Source: Candidatus Omnitrophota bacterium (GTDB lineage: Bacteria > Omnitrophota > Gorgyraeia > Zapsychrales > Zapsychraceae). From it: a stretch of 64,000 nt of DNA. Position 1 is the first letter of the stretch; the number at the start of each line of letters is the position of its first letter. A program made the translations under genes and the position numbers. Below are positions 4,637-28,090 of the stretch, one piece after another. The DNA is taken from NCBI GenBank assembly GCA_029261065.1, contig JAJDCB010000026.1, forward strand, positions 166,320 to 230,319, written 5' to 3'. The notes under the pieces were generated by a model. That model was not told the DNA's origin, did not search any database, and was given only the letters and a program-made list of their open reading frames with translations.

Positions 4637-4730
4637 TAAATATATAGTACTCTTAACTATAGAGTAAAGTTTGACGCTTGAGGGTCTCTGTGTTAAGATA
4701 TCGCCATTCATTTTTAGGAGGAGGAAAAAT

Positions 4731-5300: not shown

Positions 5301-5422
5301 CCCTTTTTTTGAATACAGAATTTATGGCTTTGTGCCGTGGGTATTTGCTAAGTGCTTTTTAAAAGTGCCAAGCTAGAAGACTCATAGCCCAAAGCCATTT
5401 CCTTTCCCAAATTTTTAACAAT

Positions 5423-6979: not shown

Positions 6980-6981
6980 TC

Positions 6982-11019: not shown

Positions 11020-11050
11020 AAATCTCCTTATTATTTTTCTACCTACAACA

Positions 11051-11075
11051 TACAACCTACTACTTACTTTATCTC
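11051..11075. repeat. Right arm of the inverted repeat bracketing gene 9691..11019
   Basis: TACAACCTACTACTTACTTTATCTC is the reverse complement of the 9645-9669 arm. Confidence 0.5.
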
Positions 11076-11834: not shown

Positions 11835-12101
11835 TGTTTTGTGATGTGTGTGTTGGGTTTACGTTAAAATATTAGTATATCATGAGATTTTTTTTGTTCA
11901 ATGATTGAACTAATAGGGTATGATTTTAAAAAAATATTTTAATTATTTTCATTCCAGAGGTTGTAATATAGCAAATAATAAAGTATATTTACAGTAGATA
12001 AGAAAGCGGTTTCATTTATTGGAAATATTAGTTGCTAATTCATCTCTACGTAATACAATACATTTGAAATTTCGTTCTAACCCATTTAAATATAGAAGCT
12101 A

Positions 12102-12431
12102 ATGAAAAATAACGATAATAAAAGAAAAATCCCTCGCCAGGGCTGCCGTGTTCCGGTAGAAGGTAAAAAAGATAGCCTTTTTGAGTCACTTGAAACAGTT
12201 GATATTAGTAAAAACGGTTTAGGCTTTATCTCAACCCATCGTATTCCTGTTAACAAAAAAATTCCTATAGAAATTAACCTATCTGAGGATGAAGATCCGG
12301 TTTTAGTGGTGGGTAAAGTGGAATGGAATCGGGTTATAAAAGGAACCGATAATTACCGTATCGGAGTCTCTTTTGATAGTATTATGAGAGGCTCAAAGTC
12401 ACGTCTTTTGCAATATTTTAAGTCCTTATAG
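12102..12431 (+). CDS. Single-domain PilZ c-di-GMP receptor
   Basis: RxxxR motif (RQGCR) and DxSxxG motif (DISKNG). 109 aa. Confidence 0.65.
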   Translation: MKNNDNKRKIPRQGCRVPVEGKKDSLFESLETVDISKNGLGFISTHRIPVNKKIPIEINLSEDEDPVLVVGKVEWNRVIKGTDNYRIGVSFDSIMRGSKSRLLQYFKSL

Positions 12432-12472
12432 GTATTATCAAAACATAAAGTCACTATTGAGGAAAAGTACCC

Positions 12473-12811
12473 TTGTTATCTCAAATACAAGATGATCGGC
12501 GTATGTTTGCTCGTTTTTCTGCGCGTTTTCCAGCGAAGTTTAAAGATGCCCGTGCAGATTATGGATCGGTTATCGGTCTAAGAGATGCCTCAGCTGGGGG
12601 GGTTAAAATTTTCTCCAGAGAGCGTCTCTATCTTAATGATACTGTCACTATTGAGGTTAGGTTGCCTGATACACAGGCTCCGCTCAATATCAAAGGACAG
12701 GTCGTTTGGTCTAAGAAAAACGAACCTAGTTTATGGGAATTTGGTTTGCAGTGCCACACCATTAGTTTGGTCAGTATGTCACGGCTTTATAAATTCGTAG
12801 TTGATAATTAG
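12473..12811 (+). CDS. Single-domain PilZ c-di-GMP receptor (second, tandem)
   Basis: RxxxR motif (RRMFAR) and DxSxGG motif (DASAGG). 112 aa. Confidence 0.65.
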   Translation: MLSQIQDDRRMFARFSARFPAKFKDARADYGSVIGLRDASAGGVKIFSRERLYLNDTVTIEVRLPDTQAPLNIKGQVVWSKKNEPSLWEFGLQCHTISLVSMSRLYKFVVDN

Positions 12812-12922
12812 TTTTTTAAGCCTCTCACCCTTAAAGATCTTGACCCATTCCCCCACATATGTTACATTTCAATATCTTACAAATTGTTGTTAAACTAACA
12901 GTTAGAGAGCTTTTTAAAAATT

Positions 12923-15643
12923 ATGGTTATTAAGCCCAAACTCTATCAATATTTCTCTGATGCAGCTTCCTTTAAATCAAGTGAAGCGATGAGCGATAGA
13001 ATGCTTTATTTTCCCTTGTGTGGGGCAAATAATGATTCTATCAAATCCTCAATTACGCCTTTTTTAAGCGGTGATATCAAGATCGATAAAAATCGTTATT
13101 TAACGAAACCATTTTCCAGAGAAGATTTACGGAGTGTTTCTCGTAATTTTTATCTTAGGAGTCATGATAATGTCATTTCTTTTGCAGATAAAATATCCAA
13201 TGAGCATTCAACAGTTGAAGCAGGGTTTCTTTGGCATAAGGTAACCAAGACTTTTCCTAAAAAAGGACTAGAGCTTCAAGCTTTGAACTTTGTTCCTGTT
13301 TCAGGTGAAAATGTTGAGCTTATGAAGATTACCTGCAAAAACGTTTCTTCAAAAAACATCTCGTTTACACCAACAGGATGTGTCCCAATGTTTGCCCGCG
13401 CCCTTTCCAATAAACATGACCACGAACATGTCACAGCATTACTACAAACTATTACTCAAACAAAACAGGGTGTTATTGTTGAGCCGACGATGTTATTTAA
13501 TGAGGAAGGTCATAAAGACGTTCAAACGACTTATTTTGTTTTTGGATTTGAGGATAGCGGTAACGCTATTAAAGGTACGTTTCCTACGATGGCTTGTTTT
13601 TGTGGTGATGCTGGAACTCTTCGGGAACCGCAGGCAGTCTGTGAGAATTTGGATCCCAAAGGGCTAACAGAGAAAGAATTAAACGGAGAAGAGGCGATTG
13701 GGGCTATACGTTTTGAAGATGTTGAACTTAAAGCCGGCGATTTGAAAGAATATTATATTGTTATGGGAATAGCAGAAAACAATAAAAGTGTGTTTGATAT
13801 TTTCTCGGCTTTTGATACGGGACCTAAATTTGAGCAAGCCTTAACCGAGAATAAAAAATATTGGCAAGCTAAGATTCATTCCATTGAGTTTAATACGGGT
13901 TCGACCGATTTTAATGCCTGGATGAAGTGGGTCACCTTACAGCCTGTTTTGCGTCGCATTTTTGGGTGTTCTTTTTTGCCAGATCATGATTATGGAAAAG
14001 GGGGGCGTGGTTGGAGAGATATTTGGCAGGATTTATTATCGCTTATTCTTATCGAACCGGAAAATGTCAGAGAGCATTTATTGAATAATTTTGCTGGTGT
14101 TCGCATTGATGGTTCTAACGCAACAATCATCGGTGATAAACCAGGTGAGTTTTTGGCCGATCGTAATGCGATTACACGGGTATGGATGGATCACGGCGTC
14201 TGGCCGTTTATGACATTGTTACTTTATATAAATCAAACAGGAGATTTTGATATTCTGTTTGAGGACAGTTTCTATTTCAAAGATCCGCAAATATCACGAA
14301 CCTTTCATAAAGATCTTCAATGGCACCCCAAGGATGGTAAAGAGTTAAAGGATGTGAACGGAAATGTTTACCAAGGTTCTATTTTAGAACATATTCTTGT
14401 TCAGCATTTGGTTCAATTTTTTAATGTGGGCGAACACAATATGATTCGATTAGAAAATGCTGATTGGAACGATGGCTTGGATATGGCTTTTGACCGCGGG
14501 GAAAGTGTTAGCTTTACATCCTTTTATGCTGGAAACTTAATGGCCTTAGCAGATCTTTTGGAACGCGTATCTAGCACAATACAGATTCATGATATTTCTG
14601 TGGCTCAAGAATTATTAAAGTTATTAGATGGGTTAGGAAAAAATAAAGTTGATTACAATAATGCAGATGCCAAACGCAAACATTTATTTGATGTTTATTT
14701 TCCTTCCGTTCAACCCAACGTTAGCGGAGAGAAGACAACGATTGCTATTAAAGATGTGGTTTTAGATTTACGAGCGAAGGGAGAATCGTTAAAAGTATGT
14801 ATTCGATCTCAAGAAAAGATAGTTGTTGATGATAAATCAAATCAGTTTCAGTGGTTTAATGGGTATTACGATAACAAGGGCAACCGTGTTGAAGGCAAAA
14901 AAGATGACACGGTTTGGATGACTCTTACGGGTGCCGTTTTTCCGATTATGTGTGATGTAGCTGAAGATGCTGATGTAGAAAACATTGTTAAATCTGTTAA
15001 TCATTTTTTGAAAGATCAAGAGCTGGGTGGTTATCGTCTTAATACGAATTTTGGTAAGCGTAATTATTTAGACTTAGGGCGAGCTTTTGGATTTGCCTTT
15101 GGGACAAAAGAAAATGGAGCCTTCTTTAGCCATATGATAGTGATGTATGCTTATGCCCTTTACACAAGAGGTTTTGTTCGCGAAGGTTATGAGGTGTTGC
15201 ATTCGATTTATCAGATGTGTATGAATACGGATAAAAGTAAAATTTACCCAGGAGTACCAGAGTACTGTGATGCACAAGGTCAAGGCATGTATCATTATCT
15301 AACGGGGTCCGCTAGTTGGCTTGTATTAACACAATTGACTCAAGTATTTGGTGTCAGAGGTGAGGGTGGCGATTTGGTTATTAGTCCTAAGCTTGTAAAA
15401 GAAGAGTTTTCACATGAAGGTAAGGCTTCTGTTGAAAGTTATTTTGCTGGAAAGAGAATAAAGGTCGTTTATCACAATGAACAGAAATTAGATTATGGAT
15501 CGTACACCATAAAAGGTGTTTCGTTTAAAGATTTTGAGGGTTCTGTTGAATTTTCACAAACGCATCCCGCCCAAATTAAGCTCTCAAGAGCCCCTATCCA
15601 ACAGGCCCCTTCTGGCCTTGAAATTCAGATTCAACTAGGTTGA
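12923..15643 (+). CDS. GH94-like glycoside phosphorylase (cellobiose/cellodextrin/chitobiose/beta-1,2-glucan phosphorylase superfamily)
   Basis: 906 aa. RGWRD (Arg...Asp at i, i+4) and DWNDGLD (Trp-x-Asp) are spaced ~150 aa apart. This mirrors the R351/D355 and W488/D490 catalytic-site residues of cellobiose phosphorylase. Family-level call only. Confidence 0.45.
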   Translation: MVIKPKLYQYFSDAASFKSSEAMSDRMLYFPLCGANNDSIKSSITPFLSGDIKIDKNRYLTKPFSREDLRSVSRNFYLRSHDNVISFADKISNEHSTVEAGFLWHKVTKTFPKKGLELQALNFVPVSGENVELMKITCKNVSSKNISFTPTGCVPMFARALSNKHDHEHVTALLQTITQTKQGVIVEPTMLFNEEGHKDVQTTYFVFGFEDSGNAIKGTFPTMACFCGDAGTLREPQAVCENLDPKGLTEKELNGEEAIGAIRFEDVELKAGDLKEYYIVMGIAENNKSVFDIFSAFDTGPKFEQALTENKKYWQAKIHSIEFNTGSTDFNAWMKWVTLQPVLRRIFGCSFLPDHDYGKGGRGWRDIWQDLLSLILIEPENVREHLLNNFAGVRIDGSNATIIGDKPGEFLADRNAITRVWMDHGVWPFMTLLLYINQTGDFDILFEDSFYFKDPQISRTFHKDLQWHPKDGKELKDVNGNVYQGSILEHILVQHLVQFFNVGEHNMIRLENADWNDGLDMAFDRGESVSFTSFYAGNLMALADLLERVSSTIQIHDISVAQELLKLLDGLGKNKVDYNNADAKRKHLFDVYFPSVQPNVSGEKTTIAIKDVVLDLRAKGESLKVCIRSQEKIVVDDKSNQFQWFNGYYDNKGNRVEGKKDDTVWMTLTGAVFPIMCDVAEDADVENIVKSVNHFLKDQELGGYRLNTNFGKRNYLDLGRAFGFAFGTKENGAFFSHMIVMYAYALYTRGFVREGYEVLHSIYQMCMNTDKSKIYPGVPEYCDAQGQGMYHYLTGSASWLVLTQLTQVFGVRGEGGDLVISPKLVKEEFSHEGKASVESYFAGKRIKVVYHNEQKLDYGSYTIKGVSFKDFEGSVEFSQTHPAQIKLSRAPIQQAPSGLEIQIQLG

Positions 15644-15662
15644 AAAATCCCAACACTTCATT

Positions 15663-15691
15663 TTGACAAATAGTCAACTGCATGATATACT
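15663..15691 (+). promoter_or_regulatory. Sigma-70-like promoter for the sugar ABC transporter operon
   Basis: TTGACA-17 nt-TATACT, about 130 nt upstream of the solute-binding protein gene. Confidence 0.4.
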
Positions 15692-15822
15692 CATGGTTCA
15701 AATTTTGAAATTAGTACGTAACATGTTCATTTTAAACCGTTTTTGATTCTTTTAGAAAAGACTTAAAGTTTTTTTATTAAGTATGAATATTAGGAAAACA
15801 TGATTTAAGTAGAGAGGTTAAT

Positions 15823-17130
15823 ATGAAGAAGCTACTCAAGGGATTTTTAATTTGTTCATTTTTAGTCTTAATCGGTAGTGGTCTGAGTTGTTCGGGAAAA
15901 GCGGCGGATCCCAACACCGTCACTCTTTGGCACTGGATGAACGATCGTCATGCCGCCATTGAAGAGTTAGCCTCACGTTACGAAGAACAAACAGGTATTA
16001 AAGTTAAAGTTGAATTGTTCGCCCCGCCAGATGCTTATACACAAAGAATCATTGCCTCCGCCCAATCAAGAGTCCTTCCCGACATATACGGAATCCTAGA
16101 TAAAAAAGAAATATTTGCCTCCTTTATTGAAAATGGTTTTGTTGCCAATTTAACGGAGGAGTTTGCCAAAGATAATAATGCTTGGGAAAAATCTTTGTTT
16201 GCCAAGGCCGTTGATGTGAATCGTTTTAAACCTAATAATCCTCAAAATATTGAACCAGGAATTTATGGTGTTCCAATTGATGTAACCAATATTCAAATGC
16301 TTTATAACAAAAAGCTTTTAGAAAAAGCAGGAATCAAAACACCACCAAAAACGTTTGATGAGTTTCTTGCAGCCGGTGAAGCTTTAAAAAGAGTGGGTAT
16401 AACAGGATTTGTTGCTGGTTGGGGTGAGTTATGGATGGCGGATTGTTTTGCTTCTAATTATGCGTTTAATATTATGGGTGAAGATAAGATTATGGCAACT
16501 TATAGGGGAGAGGTTCCTTATACAGACCCTGATTGGGTTAAGGTTTTTGGGGTTTTTAAAACACTTAGTGATAAAGGGATTTTAATTGAAGGTATTGTCA
16601 CAAAACCAAATAAAGATGCCGAACAAGACTTTGCCTTACAAAGGGCCGCCTTTTCTTTTAATGGTTCATGGTGCGTGAATGTTTATCACAATATGAATCC
16701 GGATTTAGATTATGGTGCTATGTTACCTCCTGCGATGAATTCAAAATTTCCTTTAAAGATTTGGGGAGGGGGAGGTTCATCCTTTGTTGTTAATAATCAT
16801 ACGCCTAATAAAGAGAAGGCTATTGCGTTTTTAAAATGGTTAACGGGTCATGAGCAACAAGCCTATCTTTCAGAATCAACAAAGAATTTGCCAGCTAACC
16901 GAGAAGCGTTGTCTTCTATTCCAAAAATATTATCTCAATTTGCATCGGCCATGGATGATACAACTCATCCAACGATTTGGAAGTTTAATGAATTGCCTCT
17001 AGTTGTTGAAAACTTTGATAAAGGGATTCAATCTATTATCATTGGAGAGAAAACTCCAGAACAGGTTGCTGCAGAGGTTCAGGCTGTTAAGGAAAGAGAA
17101 ATAGAAAAAGCTAAAAAGCGAAAAAGGTAA
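15823..17130 (+). CDS. Sugar ABC transporter solute-binding lipoprotein (family 1)
   Basis: Signal peptide with lipobox (LSCSG). 435 aa. Typical SBP_bac_1 length. Followed by two permease genes. Confidence 0.7.
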   Translation: MKKLLKGFLICSFLVLIGSGLSCSGKAADPNTVTLWHWMNDRHAAIEELASRYEEQTGIKVKVELFAPPDAYTQRIIASAQSRVLPDIYGILDKKEIFASFIENGFVANLTEEFAKDNNAWEKSLFAKAVDVNRFKPNNPQNIEPGIYGVPIDVTNIQMLYNKKLLEKAGIKTPPKTFDEFLAAGEALKRVGITGFVAGWGELWMADCFASNYAFNIMGEDKIMATYRGEVPYTDPDWVKVFGVFKTLSDKGILIEGIVTKPNKDAEQDFALQRAAFSFNGSWCVNVYHNMNPDLDYGAMLPPAMNSKFPLKIWGGGGSSFVVNNHTPNKEKAIAFLKWLTGHEQQAYLSESTKNLPANREALSSIPKILSQFASAMDDTTHPTIWKFNELPLVVENFDKGIQSIIIGEKTPEQVAAEVQAVKEREIEKAKKRKR

Positions 17131-17142
17131 GCCATAGGCGCC

Positions 17143-18111
17143 TTGAATGAAGATGGTTTTAAGGCGCAACAACAAAACTTTATTATGTCTACTCCGTCAG
17201 CAAAACAAGTCAGTTTCAACAAACTCAAAAACAACGCACAGAACTTTTCTTTTATCCTTCCCGCTGTCCTTATTTTTGCCACTTTTTATATTTATCCTTT
17301 CTACGACATCTTTAAATTATCAATGCATTCCTGGAACGGAATAAATCTTCATAAAACACCTGTTGGATTAGATAATTTCTTTGAGTTAATGACCGATGGC
17401 ATTTGGTGGAAGTCTGTTTGGAATGCAACCTACATTACATTGATTGCATTAACTTTTCAGAATTTATTAGCTTTTGGTTTAGCGTTAGCATGTGATCGTG
17501 AAATTAGGATGAAGAATTTTTATCGTGTTGTGTTTTTTATTCCCCCTGTTTTATCGGAGGTTGTCGTTGGATTAGTTTGGAAGTGGATTTTAAACCCTTC
17601 TGTTCAAGATGGCCAACACATTGGATTACTAAACTATTTTTTTGATAAAATCGGCTTACATCATTTGGTTCATAACTGGCTTTCCGACCCGAATACAGCC
17701 TTAACATGTATTGCTGTTGTTCATAGTTGGAAAGGATTTGGTTGGGGCTTTATAATGTTACTAGCGGGGCTTCAGACGATTGATCGTCAACTTTATGAGG
17801 CAGCAAAAGTTGATGGTGCAGGGTTTTGGAAAACTTTGACAAATGTCACTATTCCAATGATGATGCCTGTAATTTTAGTGGTTATTATTTTAACGGTATT
17901 AGGTTCGATGCAAGCATTTGTACTAGTGTTATCCATGGTGGGCCAAGGTTTGGTTTATCATACAGAAGTTCCTGTAACGAGGATTTTATCAGCCATGACG
18001 GGAACGAATCGCTTTGGATATGCTTGTTCTATGGGCGTTGTCTTTGGCGCCCTTTTGATTATGGTTTCCTTGGCGTTTAAATTTGTTTCAGATAAGGTAA
18101 AGCAGGCTTAA
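17143..18111 (+). CDS. Sugar ABC transporter permease (MalF/UgpA-like)
   Basis: Six TM helices. EAA motif EAAKVDGAGFWKTLTNVTIP. The true start may be the internal MSTPSAK. Confidence 0.75.
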   Translation: MNEDGFKAQQQNFIMSTPSAKQVSFNKLKNNAQNFSFILPAVLIFATFYIYPFYDIFKLSMHSWNGINLHKTPVGLDNFFELMTDGIWWKSVWNATYITLIALTFQNLLAFGLALACDREIRMKNFYRVVFFIPPVLSEVVVGLVWKWILNPSVQDGQHIGLLNYFFDKIGLHHLVHNWLSDPNTALTCIAVVHSWKGFGWGFIMLLAGLQTIDRQLYEAAKVDGAGFWKTLTNVTIPMMMPVILVVIILTVLGSMQAFVLVLSMVGQGLVYHTEVPVTRILSAMTGTNRFGYACSMGVVFGALLIMVSLAFKFVSDKVKQA

Positions 18112-18125
18112 GAAGATTATTTTGA

Positions 18126-18147
18126 GGTCCCCGCTTTCGCGGGGATC
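18126..18147. repeat. REP-like GC-rich hairpin (variant CCCCGC-TTTC-GCGGGG)
   Basis: GGTCCCCGCTTTCGCGGGGATC sits between the two permease genes. It belongs to the TCCCGC-N4-GCGGGA family. Confidence 0.55.
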
Positions 18148-18166
18148 AATTAAGAGTGTTATTATT

Positions 18167-19009
18167 ATGTTAAACAAATATCAAATTAAAGGCATGTTTA
18201 AATCCACGTTCCTCCACATCATCCTGATGTCTGTCGCAGCTACGTGTCTGTTTCCTTTATTCTGGATGTTACGTTGTTCTCTCATGACGAATCAGACCGT
18301 ATTTGTAGATAAATCTTTTTTCCCACATGAGTTGCATTTTATGAATTATTTTCAAGCTTGGACAGAAGGTAATTTTGGAATTTATTTCATTAACAGTATT
18401 ATTTACACAACAAGTGTTGTTGTCGGAATTGTTGTTGTATCATCCTTAGCCGCTTATGCATTCTCACGTCTTGAATTCCCTGGAAAAAAGGTGTTCTTTT
18501 ATATGTTTGTCTTAGCAATGATGATTCCTCTACCAGGTAGTTTCGTTGCCCTTTTTGATTTAATGAACATCATCGGACTTGTGAATACGCGAATAGGGTA
18601 TATACTTTGTATGATTAATGTTGGTCTTTCAATGAGCATCCTTTTATTAAAAACATTTTTTGATAAAATGCCCCCGGATCTTGAAGATGCCGCACGGATT
18701 GATGGTTGTGGAAGGCTTCGTATTTGGTGGAATGTTGCTCTTCCTTTAGCAAGACCTGCGTTGGCGGTTATTATTATTTTTAATTCATTGAATGTCTGGA
18801 ACGAATACATTTTAGCGCAGTTGTTACTAAGCGATAAAAATTTAATGCCATTGCAAAGAGGTCTTATGGTTTTTCAAGGATCACATAGTGTTGATTATCC
18901 TTTGTTGATGGCTGGCTTAACGATTGCTGCTATCCCTATTATTGCCGTGTATCTTTTTATGCAAAAACATATTATTAAAGGGTTATCGTCAGGAGCCGTT
19001 GTTGGATGA
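18167..19009 (+). CDS. Sugar ABC transporter permease (MalG/UgpE-like)
   Basis: EAA motif DAARIDGCGRLRIWWNVALP. Start taken at MLNKYQI so the upstream REP hairpin stays intergenic. No ATPase gene in the locus. Confidence 0.75.
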   Translation: MLNKYQIKGMFKSTFLHIILMSVAATCLFPLFWMLRCSLMTNQTVFVDKSFFPHELHFMNYFQAWTEGNFGIYFINSIIYTTSVVVGIVVVSSLAAYAFSRLEFPGKKVFFYMFVLAMMIPLPGSFVALFDLMNIIGLVNTRIGYILCMINVGLSMSILLLKTFFDKMPPDLEDAARIDGCGRLRIWWNVALPLARPALAVIIIFNSLNVWNEYILAQLLLSDKNLMPLQRGLMVFQGSHSVDYPLLMAGLTIAAIPIIAVYLFMQKHIIKGLSSGAVVG

Positions 19010-21459
19010 AAACCAAATTTATTTCAAAGTCCATTTTATATCTGTTGGTAACTCTGCTCGTTACTCATTTTTCAACCCTACCTTTGCAGGCATCCTCAAA
19101 AATAAAAACTTCTGAAACAGTTGTTAGTGAAATAGAAGAACCTCAAACCCCTCAAGAAGTACAAGAACCTCAAGAACAACCAAAAGATTCTAAAGAAATT
19201 AAAGAGAACAAGCTCAGTGAGTTAGCCATTAAGTCTTTATCGCAGCTTACTTCAGAGGAGATTATTCAACAGGCATGGGAATTTTCTAGCAATAATAATT
19301 TAGAAGAATTGGATCGTTTGATTGTGGCTTGTTTAGAATTTTATGGAGAAGATGCCAAGCTACAACATCAAGAATTAACAGATTTTCCTATTCGCACGGA
19401 AGCTAAAAATTATCAATCCTTAAACGATGTAGCGACGTGTCTTTTTATTAAAGCTGAGTCTCAGATGAATAATGGATTAAGAGAAAAAGCCATCGAAGGG
19501 TTTCAACATATTATTGATAATTACAAATGGTCACAGGCTTGGGATCCGAGAGGTTGGTATTGGTCGGTTGCTGAAAAAAGTCAGGCTAGTATCGATGTGT
19601 TGACAGGAAAGAAACAAGAAGAAATAGATCAAGCTGAGGTAAAAATTAATCGCACCAGACCGAGTCTTGTTGAAAAAGGGACAGAAAATATTATTGATTA
19701 TTCGAAATACGGAAAGTTTATTAATGTGGGCACTGAAAAATATCATTACTCTATTACAGATATGCAAGGACTTACGAAAGCGATAGGTGAGGGAATCTAT
19801 CCAAATACAAGCAGCATTTTTAATAATCCCCGTTTTAAGAAGTTAAAGAAGGAAGGACGCTTAGAGGGGAGTCAATGGGACTATGTTAACACTGATGATC
19901 TTGAAGCGGCTTTTTTTAAATGGGCTACAGCTCATGAGCCATGGGGGATTCGTTTGTTTTACATTGGTATGATATTTGAAAAGGCTGAGATGTACTACGA
20001 GGCTTTAAGAGCCTATCACGCTTTAGTTGTTCATTATCCTAAGACAGTTGCTTGGACATATTGGCAGACTCCTTGGTATCCAGGGCAAGTGGCTATTGCC
20101 AAAATTCGCCATATTATTCGTATTCGTCCAGAGTTACACTTGCAAGATAAGTGGATGAAGATTGAGGTGGAAAATGGGTTTGATAATGAAGTGAAAAATG
20201 ATATTTTTATCTCATATCCAGGAAAAATTTTAGAGAAGAGTTTGATGGAAAAAGTTAAAGATAGATTTCTGGATGATAAAGCGTCGTTAGATAAAGTCAA
20301 AAAAGAATTAGGAAAAGGGACTGTACGTTTGGTTCAATATGAAAATGATCACTGGCAGATGTTGGTTAATGATAAACCTTACATTATTAAAGGTGTCACT
20401 TATGCGCCAACAAAGATTGGTCAAAGTCCTGATAAAGGATCGTTAGAAAATTGGATGGAGCAAGATACAGATGATAACGGTCTTATTGATGGGCCTTATG
20501 ATTCTTGGGTTGATAAAAACAGAAATAATAAACGTGATGAAGATGAGGCTGTTGTTGGCGATTTTCAATTGATGAAAGATATGGGTGTTAATACCATACG
20601 TGTTTATCATGTTCCTGATACCCCTAATAAAAAATTGTTAAGAGAAATGTATGAGAAATATGGAATTCGTGTCATTATGGGAGACTTTTTGGGTAAGTAC
20701 GCTATTGGTTCAGGAGCCAAATGGAGCGATGGAACAGATTATGAAAATGAAGAGCATAAGAAGAAGATGTTAGATGCTGTTAAAGGAATGGTTAATGAGT
20801 TTAAGGATGAACCTTATATTTTAATGTGGCTTTTAGGTAATGAAAATAATTATGGCGTTGCTTGTAATGCTGATAAAAAGCCTGAGGCGTATTTTAAATT
20901 TGCTGATGAGGTTGCTCAATGGATCAAATCTGTTGATAAAAATCATCCCGTTGCAATTAGCAATGGTGATACTCTGTTTTTAGACCTTTTTGCGCAAAAT
21001 GCCCCTAATATTGATATTTTTGCAGCCAATGTTTATCGAGGCAATTATGGGTTTGATCCTTTTTGGGAACAAATTCAGGACGCCAGCGGTAAGCCTGCCT
21101 TTATCACAGAATATGGATGCCCTGCCTTTGCAAAACATCTATCGTTAGAGGAGGCCGAAAAAGCTCAAGCCGATTATCATGAAGGTAATTGGCTAGATAT
21201 TGCAAGAAATACAGCAGGTTCGCAAGACGGTGTAGGGAATGCTTTAGGGGGTATTGTTTTTGAATGGATGGATGAATGGTGGAAAAATTATGAACCTTAT
21301 CTGCACGATCGTGCCTCTGATGCCGTCGGACCGTTTCCGGGAGGTTTTTATTATGAAGAATGGTTTGGTATTGTAAGTCAAGGAAATGGTCGAAAAAGCC
21401 CTTTTTTAAGACAATTAAGAAAGGCCTATTTTTCCTATCAAGAGATGTGGAATCAATAA
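19006..21459 (+). CDS. Secreted clan GH-A (GH2/GH5-like TIM-barrel) glycoside hydrolase with an N-terminal GWFWKP-repeat domain
   Basis: Signal peptide. The N-terminal ~170 aa carry one copy of the repeat that also builds ORFs 21617 and 51589 (…AWDPRGWYWSVAEKSQ). C-terminal TIM barrel has acid/base-like LLGNENNYG and nucleophile-like FITEYGCPAF motifs. Confidence 0.55.
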   Translation: MKTKFISKSILYLLVTLLVTHFSTLPLQASSKIKTSETVVSEIEEPQTPQEVQEPQEQPKDSKEIKENKLSELAIKSLSQLTSEEIIQQAWEFSSNNNLEELDRLIVACLEFYGEDAKLQHQELTDFPIRTEAKNYQSLNDVATCLFIKAESQMNNGLREKAIEGFQHIIDNYKWSQAWDPRGWYWSVAEKSQASIDVLTGKKQEEIDQAEVKINRTRPSLVEKGTENIIDYSKYGKFINVGTEKYHYSITDMQGLTKAIGEGIYPNTSSIFNNPRFKKLKKEGRLEGSQWDYVNTDDLEAAFFKWATAHEPWGIRLFYIGMIFEKAEMYYEALRAYHALVVHYPKTVAWTYWQTPWYPGQVAIAKIRHIIRIRPELHLQDKWMKIEVENGFDNEVKNDIFISYPGKILEKSLMEKVKDRFLDDKASLDKVKKELGKGTVRLVQYENDHWQMLVNDKPYIIKGVTYAPTKIGQSPDKGSLENWMEQDTDDNGLIDGPYDSWVDKNRNNKRDEDEAVVGDFQLMKDMGVNTIRVYHVPDTPNKKLLREMYEKYGIRVIMGDFLGKYAIGSGAKWSDGTDYENEEHKKKMLDAVKGMVNEFKDEPYILMWLLGNENNYGVACNADKKPEAYFKFADEVAQWIKSVDKNHPVAISNGDTLFLDLFAQNAPNIDIFAANVYRGNYGFDPFWEQIQDASGKPAFITEYGCPAFAKHLSLEEAEKAQADYHEGNWLDIARNTAGSQDGVGNALGGIVFEWMDEWWKNYEPYLHDRASDAVGPFPGGFYYEEWFGIVSQGNGRKSPFLRQLRKAYFSYQEMWNQ

Positions 21460-21616
21460 ATACTGAAAAATTTAACCGTTTTTGTCAATTCTATGCCGTA
21501 TCGCTAAATTTTGGCATTTTTATATATTATAGTGTATAATTAGACTACGTATTTAAAGGTAGTCTTATTTTTAACCCACCAAAATTCCTAAAAAGAAGAA
21601 AAGGAGAAGTAGTAAC

Positions 21617-22489
21617 ATGAAAAAATTGTTGTATCTATTTATCGCATTACTTATTTCAGGGGCTGGATTTGTTAGTCCAAATCAAGTTGAAGCATACAAT
21701 TTCGGAGATTTTCGTTCGGAAACGTTGACAGCAAAAGCATGGGAAGCTTTGGCAGAAGACGATATTGAGGCCGTATTAGCATATACAAATAAGGTTATGG
21801 AACTTTATGGGGCGCAAGCACAACAAATGCAAGAAAGTATTGATGAATTTGTTAGTGGTCCTAAAGAAGACGTCTATGCTTTATGGGCATTAAACGATGT
21901 TTCTACAAGTTTGTTTATCCAAGGGGAAGCCTTTAGAAAAGCTAATATGGTTGACGAAGCCAAAGAAGTTTACAAGAAACTCTTAAACGAATACACGTAT
22001 GGACAATCTTGGGATGATAATGGTTGGTTTTGGAAACCAGCTGAAGCTGCTAAAGAAAAATTGGCAATGCTAGAATCCGGAACGAATTTAGATTTTGGCG
22101 ATTATTCTTCAGCGTATTTGACAGATCAAGCATGGAAGGCCTTAGGTAGCCAAGATCTAGAAGGTGTTGTTATCTATACGGATAAAGTTATGGAACTTTA
22201 TGCGAACCAGGCGCAAGAAATGCAAAATTCTTTGACAGAATATGCTTGGGAATCAAAAGAAAAAATATTTTCTTTGTGGGCTTTAAATGATGTTGGTACA
22301 GCGCTTTTCATCAGAGGTGAAGCGTTTAGGCAAGCAGGAAAGAACAAAGAATCTGCGCAAGCTTATAAAGCTCTCGTTGATAGTTATTATTATGCTCAAT
22401 GTTGGGATCCAGGTGTTAACAATAAAGGTTGGTTCTGGAAACCAGCTGAGGCGGCTCAACAAGCATTGGATGAAATTGGAGAAGTTTAA
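21617..22489 (+). CDS. Secreted protein made of two ~130-aa GWFWKPAEAA repeats (novel domain)
   Basis: Signal peptide. Two internal repeats, each ending ...LWALNDV[SG]T.LFI.GEAFR...Y.Y.Q.WD..GWFWKPAEAA. Confidence 0.5.
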   Translation: MKKLLYLFIALLISGAGFVSPNQVEAYNFGDFRSETLTAKAWEALAEDDIEAVLAYTNKVMELYGAQAQQMQESIDEFVSGPKEDVYALWALNDVSTSLFIQGEAFRKANMVDEAKEVYKKLLNEYTYGQSWDDNGWFWKPAEAAKEKLAMLESGTNLDFGDYSSAYLTDQAWKALGSQDLEGVVIYTDKVMELYANQAQEMQNSLTEYAWESKEKIFSLWALNDVGTALFIRGEAFRQAGKNKESAQAYKALVDSYYYAQCWDPGVNNKGWFWKPAEAAQQALDEIGEV

Positions 22490-22511
22490 TATTTCTCATT
22501 CCACTATTTTT

Positions 22512-22543
22512 CAGGGTATTTGTTGATTCTAACAAATACCCTG
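22512..22543 (+). terminator. Perfect 13-bp hairpin (possible terminator or regulatory hairpin)
   Basis: CAGGGTATTTGTT-gattct-AACAAATACCCTG. No clean T-run follows it. Confidence 0.35.
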
Positions 22544-22635
22544 AAAATCCTTTTAAATCACAATTTGTAATCTACCATTTTCAAGCAAAAGATTAAAAAC
22601 AGAATGACCTGCCGAGAATAGAAAGGCTAAGCAAC

Positions 22636-23337
22636 ATGAAATTACGTTGGATTTTTTTTGTATGTGTGTTAAGTTTTACCGCTGGATGTGGAAATTCACA
22701 AAAAGCGAAACAAAAAGCTACACCACCTGAAACGAATCAGCAAACAGTTAAAACATCTTCCGAAACATTACCTGCCGCCTTAGATATTGACATCGAAGAG
22801 ATGGCCAATTCTAATGGATTTAAACCGTTCTATATTTATGCTGACAAAGGCTCTAGGCTAAATCATTATGTCCCTTCAGGATTTATGCCTAATGGCAAAT
22901 GCGTTACATTTAATGATGTCTGGCGTGAAAATTGCTATTCCGGAGAGACATGTGTCCAAATAGTCTATGATGTTGAATGTTCCCAGCTGGATCAAAAATG
23001 GGTGGGGATTTATTGGCTTAATCCTCCCAATAATTGGGGTCGCAGAAAAGGTGGTTTTAATTTAACCGGTGCCAACAAGTTAACCTTTTGGGCTAAGGGA
23101 CGTTCGGGTAACGAACAGATACAAGAATTTACGGTTGGAGGCATTGAAGGTGATTATCCTGATACGGATAAGGTCGTTCTTGGGCCTATTATTTTAACGG
23201 ATCAATGGAAGCAATACACCATTGACTTAAGGGGTAAAGATTTATCTTATATTAGCGGGGGATTTGCGTGGGCAACGGAGGCCGATGTGAACGAAGGGAG
23301 TTGTGAGTTTTACTTGGATAATCTTAGATTTGAGTAA
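22636..23337 (+). CDS. Lipoprotein with a beta-sandwich (carbohydrate-binding-module-like) C-terminal domain
   Basis: Lipobox FTAGC. Aromatic- and Gly-rich C-terminal domain. Located inside the glycan-utilisation locus. Confidence 0.4.
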   Translation: MKLRWIFFVCVLSFTAGCGNSQKAKQKATPPETNQQTVKTSSETLPAALDIDIEEMANSNGFKPFYIYADKGSRLNHYVPSGFMPNGKCVTFNDVWRENCYSGETCVQIVYDVECSQLDQKWVGIYWLNPPNNWGRRKGGFNLTGANKLTFWAKGRSGNEQIQEFTVGGIEGDYPDTDKVVLGPIILTDQWKQYTIDLRGKDLSYISGGFAWATEADVNEGSCEFYLDNLRFE

Positions 23338-23388
23338 TTTATAACCCTGTTGTAAGTTTAAAATTTAACTTAGAAAATTTTATGTTTT

Positions 23389-23422
23389 AAAAAGCGCTTT
23401 GTTTATCGAAGCGCTTTTTTTA
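23389..23422 (+). terminator. Rho-independent terminator
   Basis: AAAGCGCTTTG...CGAAGCGCTTTTTTT: a GC-rich palindromic stem followed by T7. Confidence 0.55.
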
Positions 23423-23706
23423 TTTCTAAATAAAGATGACAGCAAGAAGTGTTTTTATAACAAGATGTTAGGAAAATATTGGTCGTAAAAATAATGAATT
23501 ATTCTTGTATTAAATATAATAGTTTGTTATATTCATATTAATTAATAATATACCAAAAAGGCGCGTCGCATCTTCTTAGTGAGAAGGTGTATACATTTTT
23601 ATATACCGACGAGAACTATTGTTACCTTACTATTACAAGCATAAAAAATTGATTCAACTAAATCATATAGATAGTAATAAAAGGGCACATAAAATGATAA
23701 CTTGGA

Positions 23707-25044
23707 GTGTGCATGTCTAAGGGTGCGGCTATTAAAATAACTGTAGTCGTCATCTTGTTAGTTATTGCATGTCTTGGTCTTGCAGGGTGGTTGTACAAAT
23801 TAAATACAGATCTAAAAGAAAAGAATTTGTCTTTAGAAAAAGAAGTTGAGCAGGTTCATAAACGAGAACTTGCAGCGGTGAGAGATGCAAAGGCTATTGA
23901 ACAAAAGTTAAAAAAAGTTAGAGAAGAGAAAGTAGCTTTAGAAACGAACATTAGTGAATTACACAAACAAACGACGGGTCTTAACGAAGAAATTGATAGC
24001 ATCAGTGCTGATCGCGATAAGTTTAAAAATAGAATAGAAAATATCAAAAAAGAGCGTGATGATCTGATGGCCCGCATGCAAGAAATGGCCACGGAAATAG
24101 AAAACCACAAGCTAGCCGCCGCACAATCCTCCGGGAGTCAATTCTCAAATTCAGCCCAAATACAATTGCCCAACTCAGAGGGTAGTCAAGTTACCGTCCT
24201 GGAATCCGCTCCAGAACCTGTCGATTATTCTCAAATTGAGGAGAGAAAAGGGGATTACGAGCATTGGGCTAAACTTTTAAGAGCAAAAGCGAATTTAGAA
24301 GTTAAAGTAGATCAATTAAAAAGAGACCTATCAGAAGCTGCTGTTGAAATTGTTGATTTGAAGCAAACAAATTCTGATTTTCAAATGGATATTGAAAATT
24401 TAACGTTAAATAAAGAAGATATCGGCCGCGAAATTCAATACAAGGAAGAGATGATTAATAATCTTTCATTAGAACTTGCCCGTGCTAAGAATGATAAAAA
24501 GTTTTTAACAGATCGTGTTTCAAAGATTAATGATGGGAATAAAGAGTTAAGAAACCAGCTTAAAACTTTAATTACAAAAAAGAGTGCACTCGAGAAAACA
24601 GTTGTTAAGCTGACACAAGATAAGAATAATATTAATAAGAAATTAGCTGGGTCAGAAGAAGTTATTCAGAGCAAAATTGATGAAATTTGGGACATTAAAG
24701 ACAGTATTGATAATACATTTAAATCAACGCGTTTGTCTGTTCCATCAAGCGAAGTTGAATTGCCTCCTATTGTTGTTAATTCTAATGGTCCCGCTGTTAG
24801 CTTTAATCCTGGAGCAACAATTCCAGGTATTGACGCTCAAGTGGTAAGTGTTAATCATGATAATAATTTTGTTATTCTTGATGCTGGAGAGAATACCGGA
24901 GTACGTATAGGCGATACATTAAGCGTTTATCGAGACTCAAAATACGTTGCCCGCCTTGAAGTTATCCAAGTTCGTAAAGATATCTCAGCTGCTGATATTA
25001 AAGACAAATGGTCTCGTCTTGAGGCAGGAGATGTTGTTCGTTAA
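23707..25044 (+). CDS. Membrane-anchored long coiled-coil protein with a small C-terminal beta domain
   Basis: N-terminal TM helix. ~300 aa of heptad-rich E/K/L sequence. C-terminal ...VILDAGENTGVRIGDTLSVYRD... domain. Confidence 0.4.
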   Translation: MCMSKGAAIKITVVVILLVIACLGLAGWLYKLNTDLKEKNLSLEKEVEQVHKRELAAVRDAKAIEQKLKKVREEKVALETNISELHKQTTGLNEEIDSISADRDKFKNRIENIKKERDDLMARMQEMATEIENHKLAAAQSSGSQFSNSAQIQLPNSEGSQVTVLESAPEPVDYSQIEERKGDYEHWAKLLRAKANLEVKVDQLKRDLSEAAVEIVDLKQTNSDFQMDIENLTLNKEDIGREIQYKEEMINNLSLELARAKNDKKFLTDRVSKINDGNKELRNQLKTLITKKSALEKTVVKLTQDKNNINKKLAGSEEVIQSKIDEIWDIKDSIDNTFKSTRLSVPSSEVELPPIVVNSNGPAVSFNPGATIPGIDAQVVSVNHDNNFVILDAGENTGVRIGDTLSVYRDSKYVARLEVIQVRKDISAADIKDKWSRLEAGDVVR

Positions 25045-25067
25045 CAATCTATTTAGTAGTTTTTATT

Positions 25068-26075
25068 ATGAGTCAAAAAAAAATTAGTATTGATGATGTA
25101 GCCCGTCGAGCCAAAGTCTCCATTACAACAGTCTCTCGTGTTATCAATAACGTACCTACCGTTTCCAATAAAAATCGAGCTAAAGTTGAAGAGGCTGTTG
25201 CTGCCTTAAAGTTTAAACCAAACGTCAGTGCCCAACGTCTCGCCCGAGGTGTTAACAATGCGATTGGTCTTGTTATGCCTGGGTATCCAGGAATCTTTCA
25301 TTCTTTTTATGCCATAGAGCTTGTACGTGGGATTGGACATTCATGTGAAACATTAAGAATGGATATGGTTTTTCATATCACCAATGGATTTAATCCGATC
25401 AATAACAACAATGTTGGTGGGGTTATTTTTGCTGATATTATTGAAAACCGTAAACAAGTCGAATCCGCCGTTGCAACGGGAACACCTTGTGTGATTATTA
25501 ATAATAAAGTAGATGATTTAGATGTGAGTTATGTCTCTATTCATAATCATTTTGGTGGTGAGTTAGCAGCTGATTATTTGTATAGTCTTGGACATCGCGA
25601 TATCGCTATCGTTTCGGGATCTTTTAATACCCAAGCCGGTATTCAACGATTTGACGGGTTTAGGAAATATTTAGAAAAACAAAATAATCCTCTCAATGAG
25701 GAGTATATTTTCGAAGGTGATTATTCAAGGCGATGTGCGCGTGTGGCGGCCGAACAGTTTTTAAAAGCTAAAAAAAGACCAACTGCCATTTTTGCGGCTA
25801 GTGATGAAATGGCTTTAGAGTTGATGGCCTTTTTTTTAGAGAAAGGAGTTAAGATTCCTGAAGAACTTTCGATTATTGGCTTTGACGATAATCCAGCCTG
25901 CCTGTATGGCCCCGTAGCCCTAACAACCATAAAACAGCCTCTTTTTAAGATGGCAGAAGAATCCGTAAGAATGCTTCATAAGATCATCCAAGAGCAAAAG
26001 CATGTTAGGAAAAAGTTAATTTTAAAACCCGAGCTCGTTATCCGAGAATCCTGCGCTCCCTGCCCAAAGAAGTAA
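25068..26075 (+). CDS. LacI-family transcriptional regulator
   Basis: N-terminal HTH (ISIDDVARRAKVSITTVSRVIN) and a periplasmic-binding-protein-like effector domain. 335 aa. Confidence 0.8.
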   Translation: MSQKKISIDDVARRAKVSITTVSRVINNVPTVSNKNRAKVEEAVAALKFKPNVSAQRLARGVNNAIGLVMPGYPGIFHSFYAIELVRGIGHSCETLRMDMVFHITNGFNPINNNNVGGVIFADIIENRKQVESAVATGTPCVIINNKVDDLDVSYVSIHNHFGGELAADYLYSLGHRDIAIVSGSFNTQAGIQRFDGFRKYLEKQNNPLNEEYIFEGDYSRRCARVAAEQFLKAKKRPTAIFAASDEMALELMAFFLEKGVKIPEELSIIGFDDNPACLYGPVALTTIKQPLFKMAEESVRMLHKIIQEQKHVRKKLILKPELVIRESCAPCPKK

Positions 26076-26194
26076 TTTCTCTTAACCTTAAGCTAGCTAA
26101 CATCTTTCAATACTTCATCGTAATCCTCATTACTTGACAAACCCTTCAATATGCTATATTTTAGTGCATCACATAAAAATATGGATAGACGTTT

Positions 26195-28090
26195 ATGAAT
26201 CAGAGATATAATACTATTATTATTGGTGGCGGCCATGCAGGTGTTGAAGCCGCCTTAGCAGCCGCACGTATGGGGGTTAAGACCCTTATGGTGACCTTTT
26301 ATGCCGATACCATTGGCCAAATGAGCTGTAATCCAGCTATTGGCGGTGTTGGGAAGGGGCAGTTGGTTAAGGAAATTGATGCTCTTGGAGGTGAGATGGG
26401 GCTTGCGGCTGATCGTAGCGCTATTCAATTTCGCCAATTGAACACCTCCAAAGGACAAGCCGTTCGTTCCTCCCGATGTCAGTCTGATCGAAAACAATAT
26501 AAGCTTTATATTCAGGGTGTTGTTTCCAAGCAAGAGAATCTTACCGTATTAGAAGATAAGGTCAGTGATTTGTTGGTTAAGGGCGGACAGGTACTAGGTG
26601 TTAAAACCGAAAAAGGTTTAACAATAGATTGTCAAAACGTTGTAATCACCACAGGTACTTTTTTAAGAGGGCGCATTCATATAGGGCGAGAAATCACGCA
26701 GGGTGGAAGAATTGGTGAGCCAAACTCCATTTCGCTTGCTGATAGTATTGAAGCTTTAGGTTTTGAAGTGTTGCTCTTTAAAACAGGAACGCCTCCAAGA
26801 CTTGATGGGAAGACCATCGACTTCTCAAAATGTATCCCTCAATATTCTGATAATCTTCCCATACCATTTTCTTTTCGTACAACAGAGATTCCAAGTGATC
26901 AAAAATTATTGCCCTGTCACATTACGCATACAAATGAAAAGACACATCAAATTATTCAAGACAATATGGATTTGTCTCCGATGTATTCCGGCCAGATGAG
27001 TGCGACAGGTGTTCGCTATTGTCCGTCCATTGAAGATAAGTTAAAGAAATTTGGTGATAAGTTGCAGCACAACATTTTTTTAGAACCAGAAGGTCTTGAT
27101 ACGGATGAATATTACCCTAATGGCATTTCAACAGGTTTGCCTTTAGACGTTCAGGAGCAGTTCGTTCGTTCCGTTAAAGGATTAGAAAATGTAGTGATTG
27201 TTCGTCCGGGATATTCGATTGAACACGGTGTTATTCCACCGACGGAATTAACACCTTATCTAGAGACTAAAAAGGTAAAAGGTTTATTTTTAGCTGGACA
27301 AATTAATGGAACGACTGGATACGAAGAAGCTGGCGCACAAGGGTTGATGGCAGGTATTAATGCAGCATTGCAAGTTCAAAACAAAGAGCCATTTGTTTTA
27401 GGACGTAATGAATCTTACATTGGTGTTCTTATTGACGACTTAACGACAAAGGGAACGGAAGAACCTTACCGGATGTTTACCTCACGTGTTGAGTATCGTT
27501 TAATTGTTCGTGAAGATAATGCAGATAATAGATTGAGTCATTATGGGCACCAATTTGGTTTGTTATCTGATGAAGAGTTTGCAAGAGTACAAAAAAAATA
27601 TGAAGTTATCTCAGAAGAGATTCAACATTTACGTGAGACAAGAGTATATCCGGGAGAAGCGATTGATAGTGAACTAAGGAAGAGAAATAGTGCGCCCCTT
27701 AAACAACCGACATTGTTAAGTGATTTATTAAAGAGGCCGGAGGTTGATTATCAACTCATTGCTCCTTTTGATGGAGATTTAAAGAAGTATCCCAAGGTTA
27801 TGATTGATCAGGTTGAATATGAAATCAAATATGAAGGGTTTATTGCTAGACAAAAAAAAGATGTTGCGCGGTTTAGACATATTGAGAATATTAAAATTCC
27901 TGCTAATATCAATTATGATGAAGTGCCAAGTCTTTCTATTGAAATTCGTCAAAAGTTAAAACGTTTTACTCCACTTAATCTCGGCCAAGCCAATAGAATT
28001 TCAGGCGTCACACCGGCCGCGATTTCCATTTTGATGGTTTATTTAAAGAAATTTTTAACAAACTCTAGGTCCTCGCTTTTGCGGGGATGA
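26195..28090 (+). CDS. mnmG: tRNA uridine 5-carboxymethylaminomethyl modification enzyme MnmG (GidA)
   Basis: FAD-binding [10 protein letters not shown] motif. 631 aa. Sequence is MnmG-like throughout. Confidence 0.9.

Follow-up and report, generated by a model that had tools for sequence, protein, structure and literature searches.

What is a pair of predicted second-messenger receptors doing at the head of a locus for sugar catabolism, and which sugar does that locus serve? The question is raised by a 64,000-nt stretch of DNA from a Candidatus Omnitrophota bacterium (hereafter the window; contig JAJDCB010000026.1 of assembly GCA_029261065.1), in which positions 12102-26075 hold twelve open reading frames (ORFs), all on the + strand, among them two PilZ proteins, a phosphorylase, an importer, an exported hydrolase and a LacI-family repressor (Table 1). 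We interpret the locus as a utilisation system for beta-1,3-glucan of the laminarin type with a conserved pair of receptors for cyclic di-GMP (c-di-GMP) at its head, and give this combined statement a probability of roughly 0.6; the catabolic pathway taken by itself is very likely. The sequences directly show the gene content with its homologies and motifs, the synteny and a conserved operator; the substrate, the protein that binds the operator and any target of the PilZ proteins are what we infer.

Two scans provide most of the comparative evidence; fetched loci carry L-numbers below. A profile of the phosphorylase, run against one genome per GTDB species, returned 80 loci, the six-frame ORFs of which were then searched with the window proteins. 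In the reverse scan an alignment of PilZ2 was run against metagenome contigs and returned 27 loci, of which about 20 are informative in that they hold enough downstream DNA. The best homologues all come from metagenome-assembled genomes (MAGs) of Candidatus Omnitrophota, with identities of ~60% for the phosphorylase, 60-70% for the hydrolase and 42-62% for PilZ2, and the exact phosphorylase sequence is present on one Logan contig (run SRR15505515). All twelve ORFs of a first-pass annotation of the window were recovered at the same coordinates on the + strand, and Pfam agrees with its domain assignments.

The substrate class is indicated by the two enzymes. Residues 9-870 of ORF 12923 (862 residues) align, with short indels only, with the laminaribiose phosphorylase of Paenibacillus sp. 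YM-1 (PsLBP; PDB 6GGY) at 886 bits and an E value of 1.9e-265. The next PDB scores are 80 bits for a cyclic beta-1,2-glucan synthase and 70 bits for a cellobiose phosphorylase, and cellobiose and chitobiose phosphorylases reach E values of 1e-18 or worse. PsLBP has an RD motif at the sugar 1-phosphate, a WND catalytic loop of which the Asp is the general acid, and a His in the phosphate site (PMC6771811). All three are found in the alignment, as R365-D366, W515-N516-D517 and H737 (the SH motif), and they are invariant in 23 homologues. In PsLBP, a beta-hairpin acts as a gate that limits the enzyme to disaccharides. The ORF is most likely a GH94 member of the laminaribiose phosphorylase subfamily (hereafter LBP, for GH94 laminaribiose phosphorylase homologue), with predicted phosphorolysis of laminaribiose. 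The GH94-like phosphorylase of the first-pass annotation is in this way narrowed to a full-length homologue of a characterised enzyme, well inside the phosphorylase families.

The exported hydrolase is composed, in this order, of a signal or anchor helix, a disordered linker, a helical repeat domain (about residues 80-373), a beta-sandwich (379-465) and a clan GH-A TIM barrel (about 500-817). Compared with PDB sequences, its catalytic domain finds GH158 first (E 3e-11 with the single sequence, 2e-13 with a profile of eight sequences), and GH158 is also the top Foldseek match (E 9e-11) of its AlphaFold model, which has a predicted local distance difference test score (pLDDT) of 77 and contains the TIM barrel. 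N612-E613 and E702 align with N136-E137 and E220 of BuGH158, that is, with the NE acid/base and the Glu nucleophile, which were verified experimentally in an enzyme with an N-terminal barrel and a C-terminal Ig-like domain (PMC7157763). Identity between GH158 and the catalytic domain is just 17-26%; in sequence and predicted fold, the hydrolase is closest to the GH158 beta-1,3-glucanases. The top match, GH158(Pro), is a processive beta-1,3-glucanase with laminaribiose as its main product (PMC13195107), which is the predicted substrate of the phosphorylase that acts downstream and fits the proposed pathway. Because the phosphorylase is homologous to laminaribiose phosphorylase and the hydrolase is nearest to GH158, a beta-1,3-glucan is the most likely substrate class, as judged from homology and modelled fold.

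Between these two enzymes stands an importer that conforms to the CUT1 family, with a family 1 binding protein and two permeases of the MalF/MalG type. Pfam bears out the solute-binding protein (SBP) and two permeases that had been annotated here, as well as the missing ATPase, no ABC_tran domain being found in the locus, in the whole 64-kb window or in L084. It is common for the CUT1 family to use a shared ATPase of the MsmX/MalK type that is encoded elsewhere.

These components suggest the following pathway. Outside the cytoplasm, the hydrolase would break beta-1,3-glucan down to laminaribiose or short oligomers, probably assisted by the exported repeat protein and the lipoprotein; the importer, energised by an ATPase encoded elsewhere, would take up the products; and the cytoplasmic LBP would convert laminaribiose and phosphate into glucose and alpha-glucose 1-phosphate. 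The organism itself is diderm, since genes for LptE, Lnt, a lipid A acyltransferase and a BamD-like lipoprotein are present in the window. The first inspection of the locus had led to the proposal that imported beta-gluco-oligosaccharides, with four possible substrates, are phosphorolysed inside the cell; the proposal is supported, and among the four options the 6GGY and GH158 matches favour the laminari-oligomers. A related locus without PilZ genes occurs in another phylum, in a Phycisphaerae MAG (L078, 2550-16692). It comprises LBP, LacI, an orthologous SBP (6e-132) with permeases, a GH149-like protein (about 1100-1300 aa, E 4e-23) and, on the - strand, a GH-A hydrolase. As it unites orthologous importer genes with LBP and a GH149-like protein, this locus supports the beta-1,3-glucan pathway.

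Such a set of genes might instead recycle a beta-glucan exopolysaccharide that the organism makes itself under the control of c-di-GMP, as the first-pass annotation had considered. PilZ domains classically gate exopolysaccharide synthases, and in L082 an LBP homologue adjoins a processive-type glycosyltransferase of family GT2. However, the locus and the window lack any glycosyltransferase or synthase, and neither of these nor any of 13 syntenic loci holds a GT2 synthase, an export component or a PilZ-fused synthase. The PilZ proteins stand alone, and repressor, high-affinity importer and exported hydrolase together form the layout typical of nutrient scavenging. We regard recycling of an own exopolysaccharide as very improbable.

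As for the receptors, both ORFs at the head of the locus are single-domain, stand-alone PilZ proteins, as had been annotated, with Pfam E values of 6e-10 and 1e-14 and scores of 39.7 bits (PilZ1) and 54.7 bits (PilZ2) against a gathering cut-off of 22.5 bits. PilZ1 has the motifs RKIPR (RxxxR) and DISKNG (DxSxxG), which are conserved in 13 orthologues; PilZ2 has RMFAR and DASAGG, and its residues R10, R14, D38, S40 and G43 do not vary among 27 orthologues. Both are predicted c-di-GMP receptors on these motifs. There is no other PilZ ORF in the 64-kb window, and no GGDEF or EAL protein was found in it. An Rfam search of 11000-27000 gave no match at E <= 1, and the region thus contains no known c-di-GMP riboswitch.

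The pair is conserved at this position. In 13 species-level genomes of Omnitrophota it lies directly 5' of an LBP that is 54-60% identical to that of the window, and those with enough downstream DNA have the order cvpA on the - strand, then PilZ1, PilZ2, LBP, SBP, the two permeases, the hydrolase, the repeat protein, the lipoprotein, the coiled-coil protein and LacI, followed by mnmG. Where upstream sequence is readable, PilZ1 almost always adjoins PilZ2, the one exception being L107, in which PilZ1 was not detected. The gap between the two ranges from -10 to 81 bp, and that between PilZ2 and LBP is 8-9 bp in L005 and L008, 33 bp in L004 and otherwise about 50-230 bp, apart from L017, where a 4.5-kb insertion with a 1251-aa ORF (3438-7193) lacking a Pfam match separates them. 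The search seeded with PilZ2 returned LBP as the next gene in 14 of the ~20 informative contigs (two of them near-identical) and SBP directly after PilZ2, with LBP absent, in three (L091, L093, L109). L097 has the hydrolase directly after LBP and lacks the importer, and L002 and a JGI contig have PilZ, PilZ and LBP followed by ychF, prfA and secA, without importer or hydrolase. Contigs of this kind indicate that the pair heads a modular locus, of which modules are lost singly and on which the pair is not strictly dependent.

The syntenic block is unlikely to owe its PilZ genes to chance adjacency, since their background density in non-syntenic Omnitrophota loci is sparse, about one per 75 kb, although chance may still account for those scattered around distant LBP paralogues. 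Such paralogues (45-48% identity) have single-domain PilZ genes directly 5' in two other Omnitrophota loci, L043 and L075, and other PilZ architectures occur nearby in L030 and L034 (STAS-PilZ, and PilZ with a T2SSE ATPase). These cases are suggestive but cannot be told apart from a PilZ count that is higher throughout this phylum.

A further indication of a link comes from the DNA upstream of PilZ1. This intergenic region cannot be aligned between species, apart from a 12-bp palindrome that adjoins the -10 box and has a central CG at the PilZ1 promoter of the window. All 12 genome loci that hold the region have the palindrome at the corresponding place, in most of them about 10-15 bp downstream of the -10 box and in L012, L015 and L016 within the promoter spacer. 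In cross-species comparison it reads GAAAGCGGTTTC in the window, GAAAGCGCTTTC in L003, GAAAACGTTTTC in L012, GAAAGCGCTTTG in L008 and GGAAACGCTTTCC in L014, and among the metagenome loci 11 have it with 0-2 mismatches and two more with three. GAAAGCGGTTTC is unique in the 64-kb window at 0-1 mismatch, and the cross-species comparison recovered no comparable conserved palindrome at the promoters of SBP, the TPR repeat protein or the coiled-coil protein. The recognition helix of the LacI protein, VSITTVSRV, is identical in six Omnitrophota orthologues, and L016, the sole full locus without LacI, carries the most degenerate palindrome. The NCBIfam matches of the repressor are RbsR/CcpA/PurR-like, and none of them reaches its equivalog cut-off.

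On the simplest reading, the local LacI repressor would control the PilZ1 promoter through GAAAGCGGTTTC. No terminator is predicted between PilZ2 and LBP; together with the sole conserved palindrome lying at the PilZ1 promoter, this points to PilZ1, PilZ2 and, by read-through, LBP as a repressor-controlled unit, and the PilZ transcript probably reads into the phosphorylase gene. The importer and hydrolase, like the remaining units, would be expressed from strong promoters of their own.

Other candidate sequences were considered. A relaxed pattern, AAANCGNTTT with one mismatch, has 55 matches in the AT-rich DNA of the window and is uninformative. TACGTA was rejected as a conserved operator, being absent from the orthologous loci; it occurs five times in the 64 kb, including the promoter regions of PilZ1 (12047-12052), SBP (15715-15720) and the repeat protein (21546-21551) and a position 166 bp 5' of LacI (24902-24907). 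The exact 11-mer AACCGTTTTTG, a half-palindrome around CG, lies near the SBP promoter (15735-15745) and the repeat-protein promoter (21474-21484) and is not conserved in other loci; at up to one mismatch, five of its seven matches in the window fall inside the locus. These sites could be secondary operators.

Several observations weigh against the combined interpretation. The genes cvpA and mnmE upstream of the pair are about as well conserved as LBP downstream of it; LBP, SBP, the repeat protein and the coiled-coil gene each have a conserved promoter of their own; and PilZ occurs without glycan genes downstream in L095 (which has a response regulator) and L107 (a mechanosensitive channel and a CNNM transporter), and probably also in L096, which is too short to be sure. 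Conversely, LBP and SBP are found without the PilZ pair in L010 and in the Phycisphaerae locus L078, and many other LBP homologues of Omnitrophota stand alone. On the side of the pathway, a search of the PDB with SBP returned generic CUT1 relatives only and no close characterised homologue, and a global factor of the CcpA type, rather than the local LacI, could be what binds the operator. In L010, the one contig of syntenic type with LBP and SBP that lacks the pair, a fragment of an insertion-sequence-like DDE transposase (1217-1801) is located directly 5' of LBP. Among the solitary LBP homologues (~60% identity), one adjoins the GT2 gene mentioned above (L082 13054-14154) and one follows a HAD-family hydrolase (L083 9325-9966).

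The PilZ pair might, accordingly, be an unrelated neighbour adjacent to cvpA, with a function of its own (e.g., in motility, pili or secretion), which has come to lie next to the glycan genes by inherited gene order in one lineage. Because cvpA is retained about as faithfully as LBP, inherited gene order is a live explanation of the PilZ association. It is in keeping with the separate promoters of the pair and of LBP, with the two or three contigs in which the pair lacks glycan genes, and with the way in which modules come and go while the pair stays (LBP missing from L091, L093 and L109, the importer from L002 and the JGI contig), as expected of a fixed anchor. However, the locus has its sole conserved LacI-type operator at the promoter of the pair and not elsewhere, PilZ2 and LBP approach each other to 8-9 bp with no terminator between them, and the single-domain PilZ genes directly 5' of distant LBP paralogues in L043 and L075 repeat the arrangement outside the syntenic block. 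On balance we consider an unrelated neighbour somewhat unlikely.

Returning to the receptor pair as a part of the system, a role that is functional rather than merely positional can be held tentatively, at a little under even odds. The first-pass annotation had seen in the PilZ genes a hint of c-di-GMP-linked control. Intact motifs, the place at the head of the locus in most related genomes and the LacI-type operator at the promoter speak for that link, whereas the promoters and the PilZ contigs without glycan genes just discussed count against it. If the link exists, the two proteins would act jointly as c-di-GMP adaptors co-expressed with the pathway, and the coupling might either convey the c-di-GMP state of the cell to sugar use or the availability of sugar to a c-di-GMP-dependent behaviour. 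A more specific possibility, in our view unlikely, is a second-messenger checkpoint: the pair would be made only once LacI senses laminari-oligosaccharide, and when loaded with c-di-GMP would bind LBP or the ATPase of the importer and so gate carbon flow, or else relay the presence of beta-glucan to the machinery for attachment or to giant proteins of these ultra-small bacteria, which may depend on a host. If true, this would be a previously undescribed link of c-di-GMP to the phosphorolysis or import of oligosaccharides.

The mention of giant proteins leads to another explanation, in which the block is the downstream part of a giant-gene neighbourhood that serves predation or parasitism. PilZ would then read c-di-GMP from GGDEF domains of giant surface proteins, and hydrolase, binding proteins and importer would harvest sugars from the envelope of prey or host rather than free laminarin. 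According to the main text of a 2023 preprint on the giant genes of Omnitrophota, most of these are followed by a small pilZ and then by SBP transporters and glycosyl hydrolases, a succession that is read there as prey cell-wall degradation (10.1101/2023.11.21.568195). In our own data, L012 (3-7736), L016 (1-7992) and L041 (3-7418) each contain an ORF that runs in from the border of the fetched sequence, so that its length of 2472-2664 aa is a minimum, and that stops shortly before cvpA and the pair. L015 (3-2450) is arranged likewise, but its contig breaks off and leaves 816 aa visible. The three long ORFs contain almost no Pfam domains and probably represent the 3' parts of giant genes of Omnitrophota. 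Against this explanation, the window has mnmE upstream and no ORF above 1000 aa in its 64 kb, and the same holds for L003, L006, L014, L087, L089 and L098. No GGDEF domain was found in the last 2500 residues of the giant ORFs, and both enzymes point to beta-1,3-glucan, which is atypical of bacterial and archaeal walls. We therefore consider a predatory or parasitic role of the block improbable.

Concerning its internal organisation, the locus is flanked by mnmE (8250-9641) and mnmG (26195-28090) and consists of several transcription units, at least five, rather than a single operon, as judged by the terminator-like hairpins and by the promoter-like elements that orthologous loci share at the genes for LBP, SBP, the repeat protein and the coiled-coil protein (Table 1). 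That the locus is co-directional, as the first-pass annotation stated, is correct, all of its genes being on the + strand; as evidence it carries no weight, since almost every gene of the window is on this strand and only four real genes of about 45 are on the other. The promoter TTGACA-17-TATACT, likewise described before, is present with 11 of 12 consensus matches and is kept at the same place in L003, L012, L015, L017 and L041. Elements like that of LBP (TTGACC/TTGTCC-17-extended -10) precede LBP also in L006, L012, L013, L014, L015, L016 and L041, and an extended -10 of the type TGnnATACTTA is conserved before the repeat-protein gene in seven orthologous loci. A CvpA-like membrane protein of 256 aa (11064-11834, - strand), with weak matches to Colicin_V and to the N terminus of MarP, is encoded divergently from the PilZ promoter. 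Beyond it lies a 454-aa ORF (9691-11055, - strand) that belongs to no family and has no match in any other locus searched.

Table 1. Genes and putative regulatory elements of the locus, with window coordinates (HTH, helix-turn-helix)
Feature	Position	Strand	Basis
Promoter-like element of the PilZ pair, TTGTAA-17-TATATT	11961..11989	+	Sequence scan; equivalent -10 boxes directly 5' of the operator in orthologous loci
Putative operator, LacI/cre-type palindrome GAAAGCGGTTTC	12002..12013	.	~13 bp downstream of -10 box; cross-species conservation
PilZ1, 109 aa, single PilZ domain	12102..12431	+	Pfam PilZ 6e-10, 39.7 bits
PilZ2, 112 aa, single PilZ domain, TTG start	12473..12811	+	Pfam PilZ 1e-14, 54.7 bits
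Promoter-like element before phosphorylase, TTGACC-17-TACATT, TG-extended	12840..12868	+	Scan and cross-species comparison
LBP, GH94, 906 aa, cytoplasmic	12923..15643	+	Pfam GH94 catalytic and supersandwich domains; PDB 6GGY match
Sigma-70-type promoter of importer/hydrolase unit, TTGACA-17-TATACT	15663..15691	+	11/12 consensus matches, TG extension
SBP, CUT1-type oligosaccharide-binding protein, N-terminal signal sequence ending in Cys	15823..17130	+	SBP_bac_8 1.5e-35, SBP_bac_1 5.6e-31
ABC permease 1, UgpA/MalF-like	17143..18111	+	BPD_transp_1 4e-17
ABC permease 2, UgpE/MalG-like	18122..19009	+	BPD_transp_1 2e-16
Exported hydrolase, 817 aa	19006..21459	+	Glyco_hydro_2_C/GH72 TIM barrel and weak TPR_6
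Promoter-like element of repeat protein, TTGGCA-18-TATAAT	21511..21540	+	Scan
Repeat protein (TPR), exported, 290 aa, two helical repeat units	21617..22489	+	TPR_6; signal peptide
Intrinsic-terminator-like hairpin, 18 bp stem	22508..22547	+	Scan
Lipobox lipoprotein, 233 aa, no family	22636..23337	+	Conserved lipobox
Intrinsic-terminator-like hairpin	23389..23419	+	Scan
Promoter-like element of coiled-coil/LacI unit, TTGTAT-17-TATATT, TG-extended	23505..23533	+	Cross-species comparison only; below scan threshold
Membrane-anchored coiled-coil protein, 445 aa, small C-terminal beta domain	23707..25044	+	Coiled coil and weak FlgT_C
LacI-family repressor	25068..26075	+	LacI HTH 5e-16, Peripla_BP_3 1e-34

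The GH-A hydrolase with a repeat domain had been recognised before, and both parts are confirmed: the clan GH-A barrel is present, and the N-terminal domain is common to the hydrolase and the next ORF (BLASTP 7e-17 and 2e-15). Upstream of the beta-sandwich the hydrolase consists of two modules, a helical unit of about 120 aa (residues 82-200) and a second one at residues 220-373. The helical unit is found in two copies in the 290-aa repeat protein, which is conserved in eight loci, and in three copies in a 525-aa paralogue at 51589-53166. Searched together, the two N-terminal modules match just 561 of 1.84 billion cluster representatives, the proteins ranging from 110 to about 2000 aa, and we therefore regard the helical repeat domain as rare and uncharacterised. 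The hydrolase and this domain might qualify as a new family or subfamily in CAZy. The 525-aa paralogue (47-50% identity) adjoins the 3' side of secA; in genomes of the L002 type, prfA and secA come directly after PilZ-PilZ-LBP.

The two remaining accessory proteins are less easily placed. The lipobox of the lipoprotein is kept in nine orthologues, which share a conserved, aromatic-rich, all-beta C-terminal domain. The protein has no sequence match in Pfam or the PDB, even with a profile of nine sequences, and its single-sequence AlphaFold model (pLDDT 33) is unusable; from its position alone, it might be guessed to be a glycan-binding protein. The coiled-coil protein is conserved and lies 11-83 bp upstream of LacI in seven loci. 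Its C-terminal domain of about 100 aa (24727-25044) has a weak match to FlgT_C (1.9e-5), and the best PDB match, TsaP, is non-significant (E 0.02); these matches hint at a fold associated with secretin or flagellar rings.

Omnitrophota are widespread, uncultured and very small, and their lifestyle is debated between free-living fermenters and predators or parasites. A conserved locus that points to beta-1,3-glucan, among the most abundant aquatic polysaccharides, offers a testable nutritional hypothesis and a candidate enrichment substrate, and a PilZ pair behind the operator of a sugar repressor is an entry point to the role of c-di-GMP in this phylum and to second-messenger gating of sugar catabolism. 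Literature searches returned no report of the assignment of this block to LBP and a GH158-like enzyme, of the operator at the pilZ promoter or of the modularity of the locus, and a term search for 'phosphorylase' gave 0 occurrences in the main text of the giant-gene preprint (10.1101/2023.11.21.568195).

Compared with the giant-gene block of that preprint, as laid out in its main text, the window shares the phylum and the succession of pilZ, transporters and hydrolases and differs in having no giant gene. The block order given there, together with the giant ORFs 5' of cvpA and the pair in L012, L016 and L041, suggests that the locus in the window is the same conserved block without the giant gene.

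In its pathway the locus resembles that of Paenibacillus sp. YM-1, whose phosphorylase (6GGY/6GH2) is homologous over the full length and shares the catalytic motifs. Paenibacillus loci (L028, L033, L036, L053, L065, L073), like the window, link LBP to LacI, SBP and two permeases without an ATPase. However, their order, LacI (-), SBP, permease, permease, LBP, is reversed with respect to the window, their SBPs are non-orthologous (E 1e-13 to 1e-20), and they have no PilZ, GH158-like hydrolase, repeat protein or lipoprotein, all of which are present in the window.

The hydrolase has its best matches in BuGH158 (6PAL) and GH158(Pro) (9ORO), endo-acting or processive enzymes of the 1,3-glucan loci of Bacteroides, with which it shares the GH-A barrel, the aligned NE acid/base and the TE(Y/W)G nucleophile. 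In Bacteroides, GH158 is the outward-facing depolymerase of a beta-1,3-glucan locus, and the same role is proposed here. Unlike BuGH158, the window hydrolase has no C-terminal Ig-like domain, and its barrel is C-terminal, after the helical repeat domain and the beta-sandwich. The loci differ as well, in that the window would rely on phosphorolysis instead of a GH3 glucosidase and has no SusC/SusD pair, neither a SusC-like TonB-dependent transporter nor a SusD-like protein being found in the locus.

With respect to the receptors, synthase systems of the BcsA/Alg44 type differ from the window, where the PilZ proteins are single-domain and no glycosyltransferase accompanies them. Stand-alone PilZ adaptors such as MapZ/PA4608 and DgrA are closer, being likewise single-domain proteins of about 110 aa with RxxxR and DxSxxG motifs; in the window, by contrast, they form a tandem pair that heads a sugar-catabolic locus behind a LacI-type operator. 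The logic of the pathway, in which a depolymerase is combined with an ATPase-less importer of the CUT1 type, a phosphorylase of GH94 and LacI, is already known from Paenibacillus and other bacteria, and what sets the locus apart is mainly the PilZ pair, conserved at its head behind a putative binding site of a sugar repressor.

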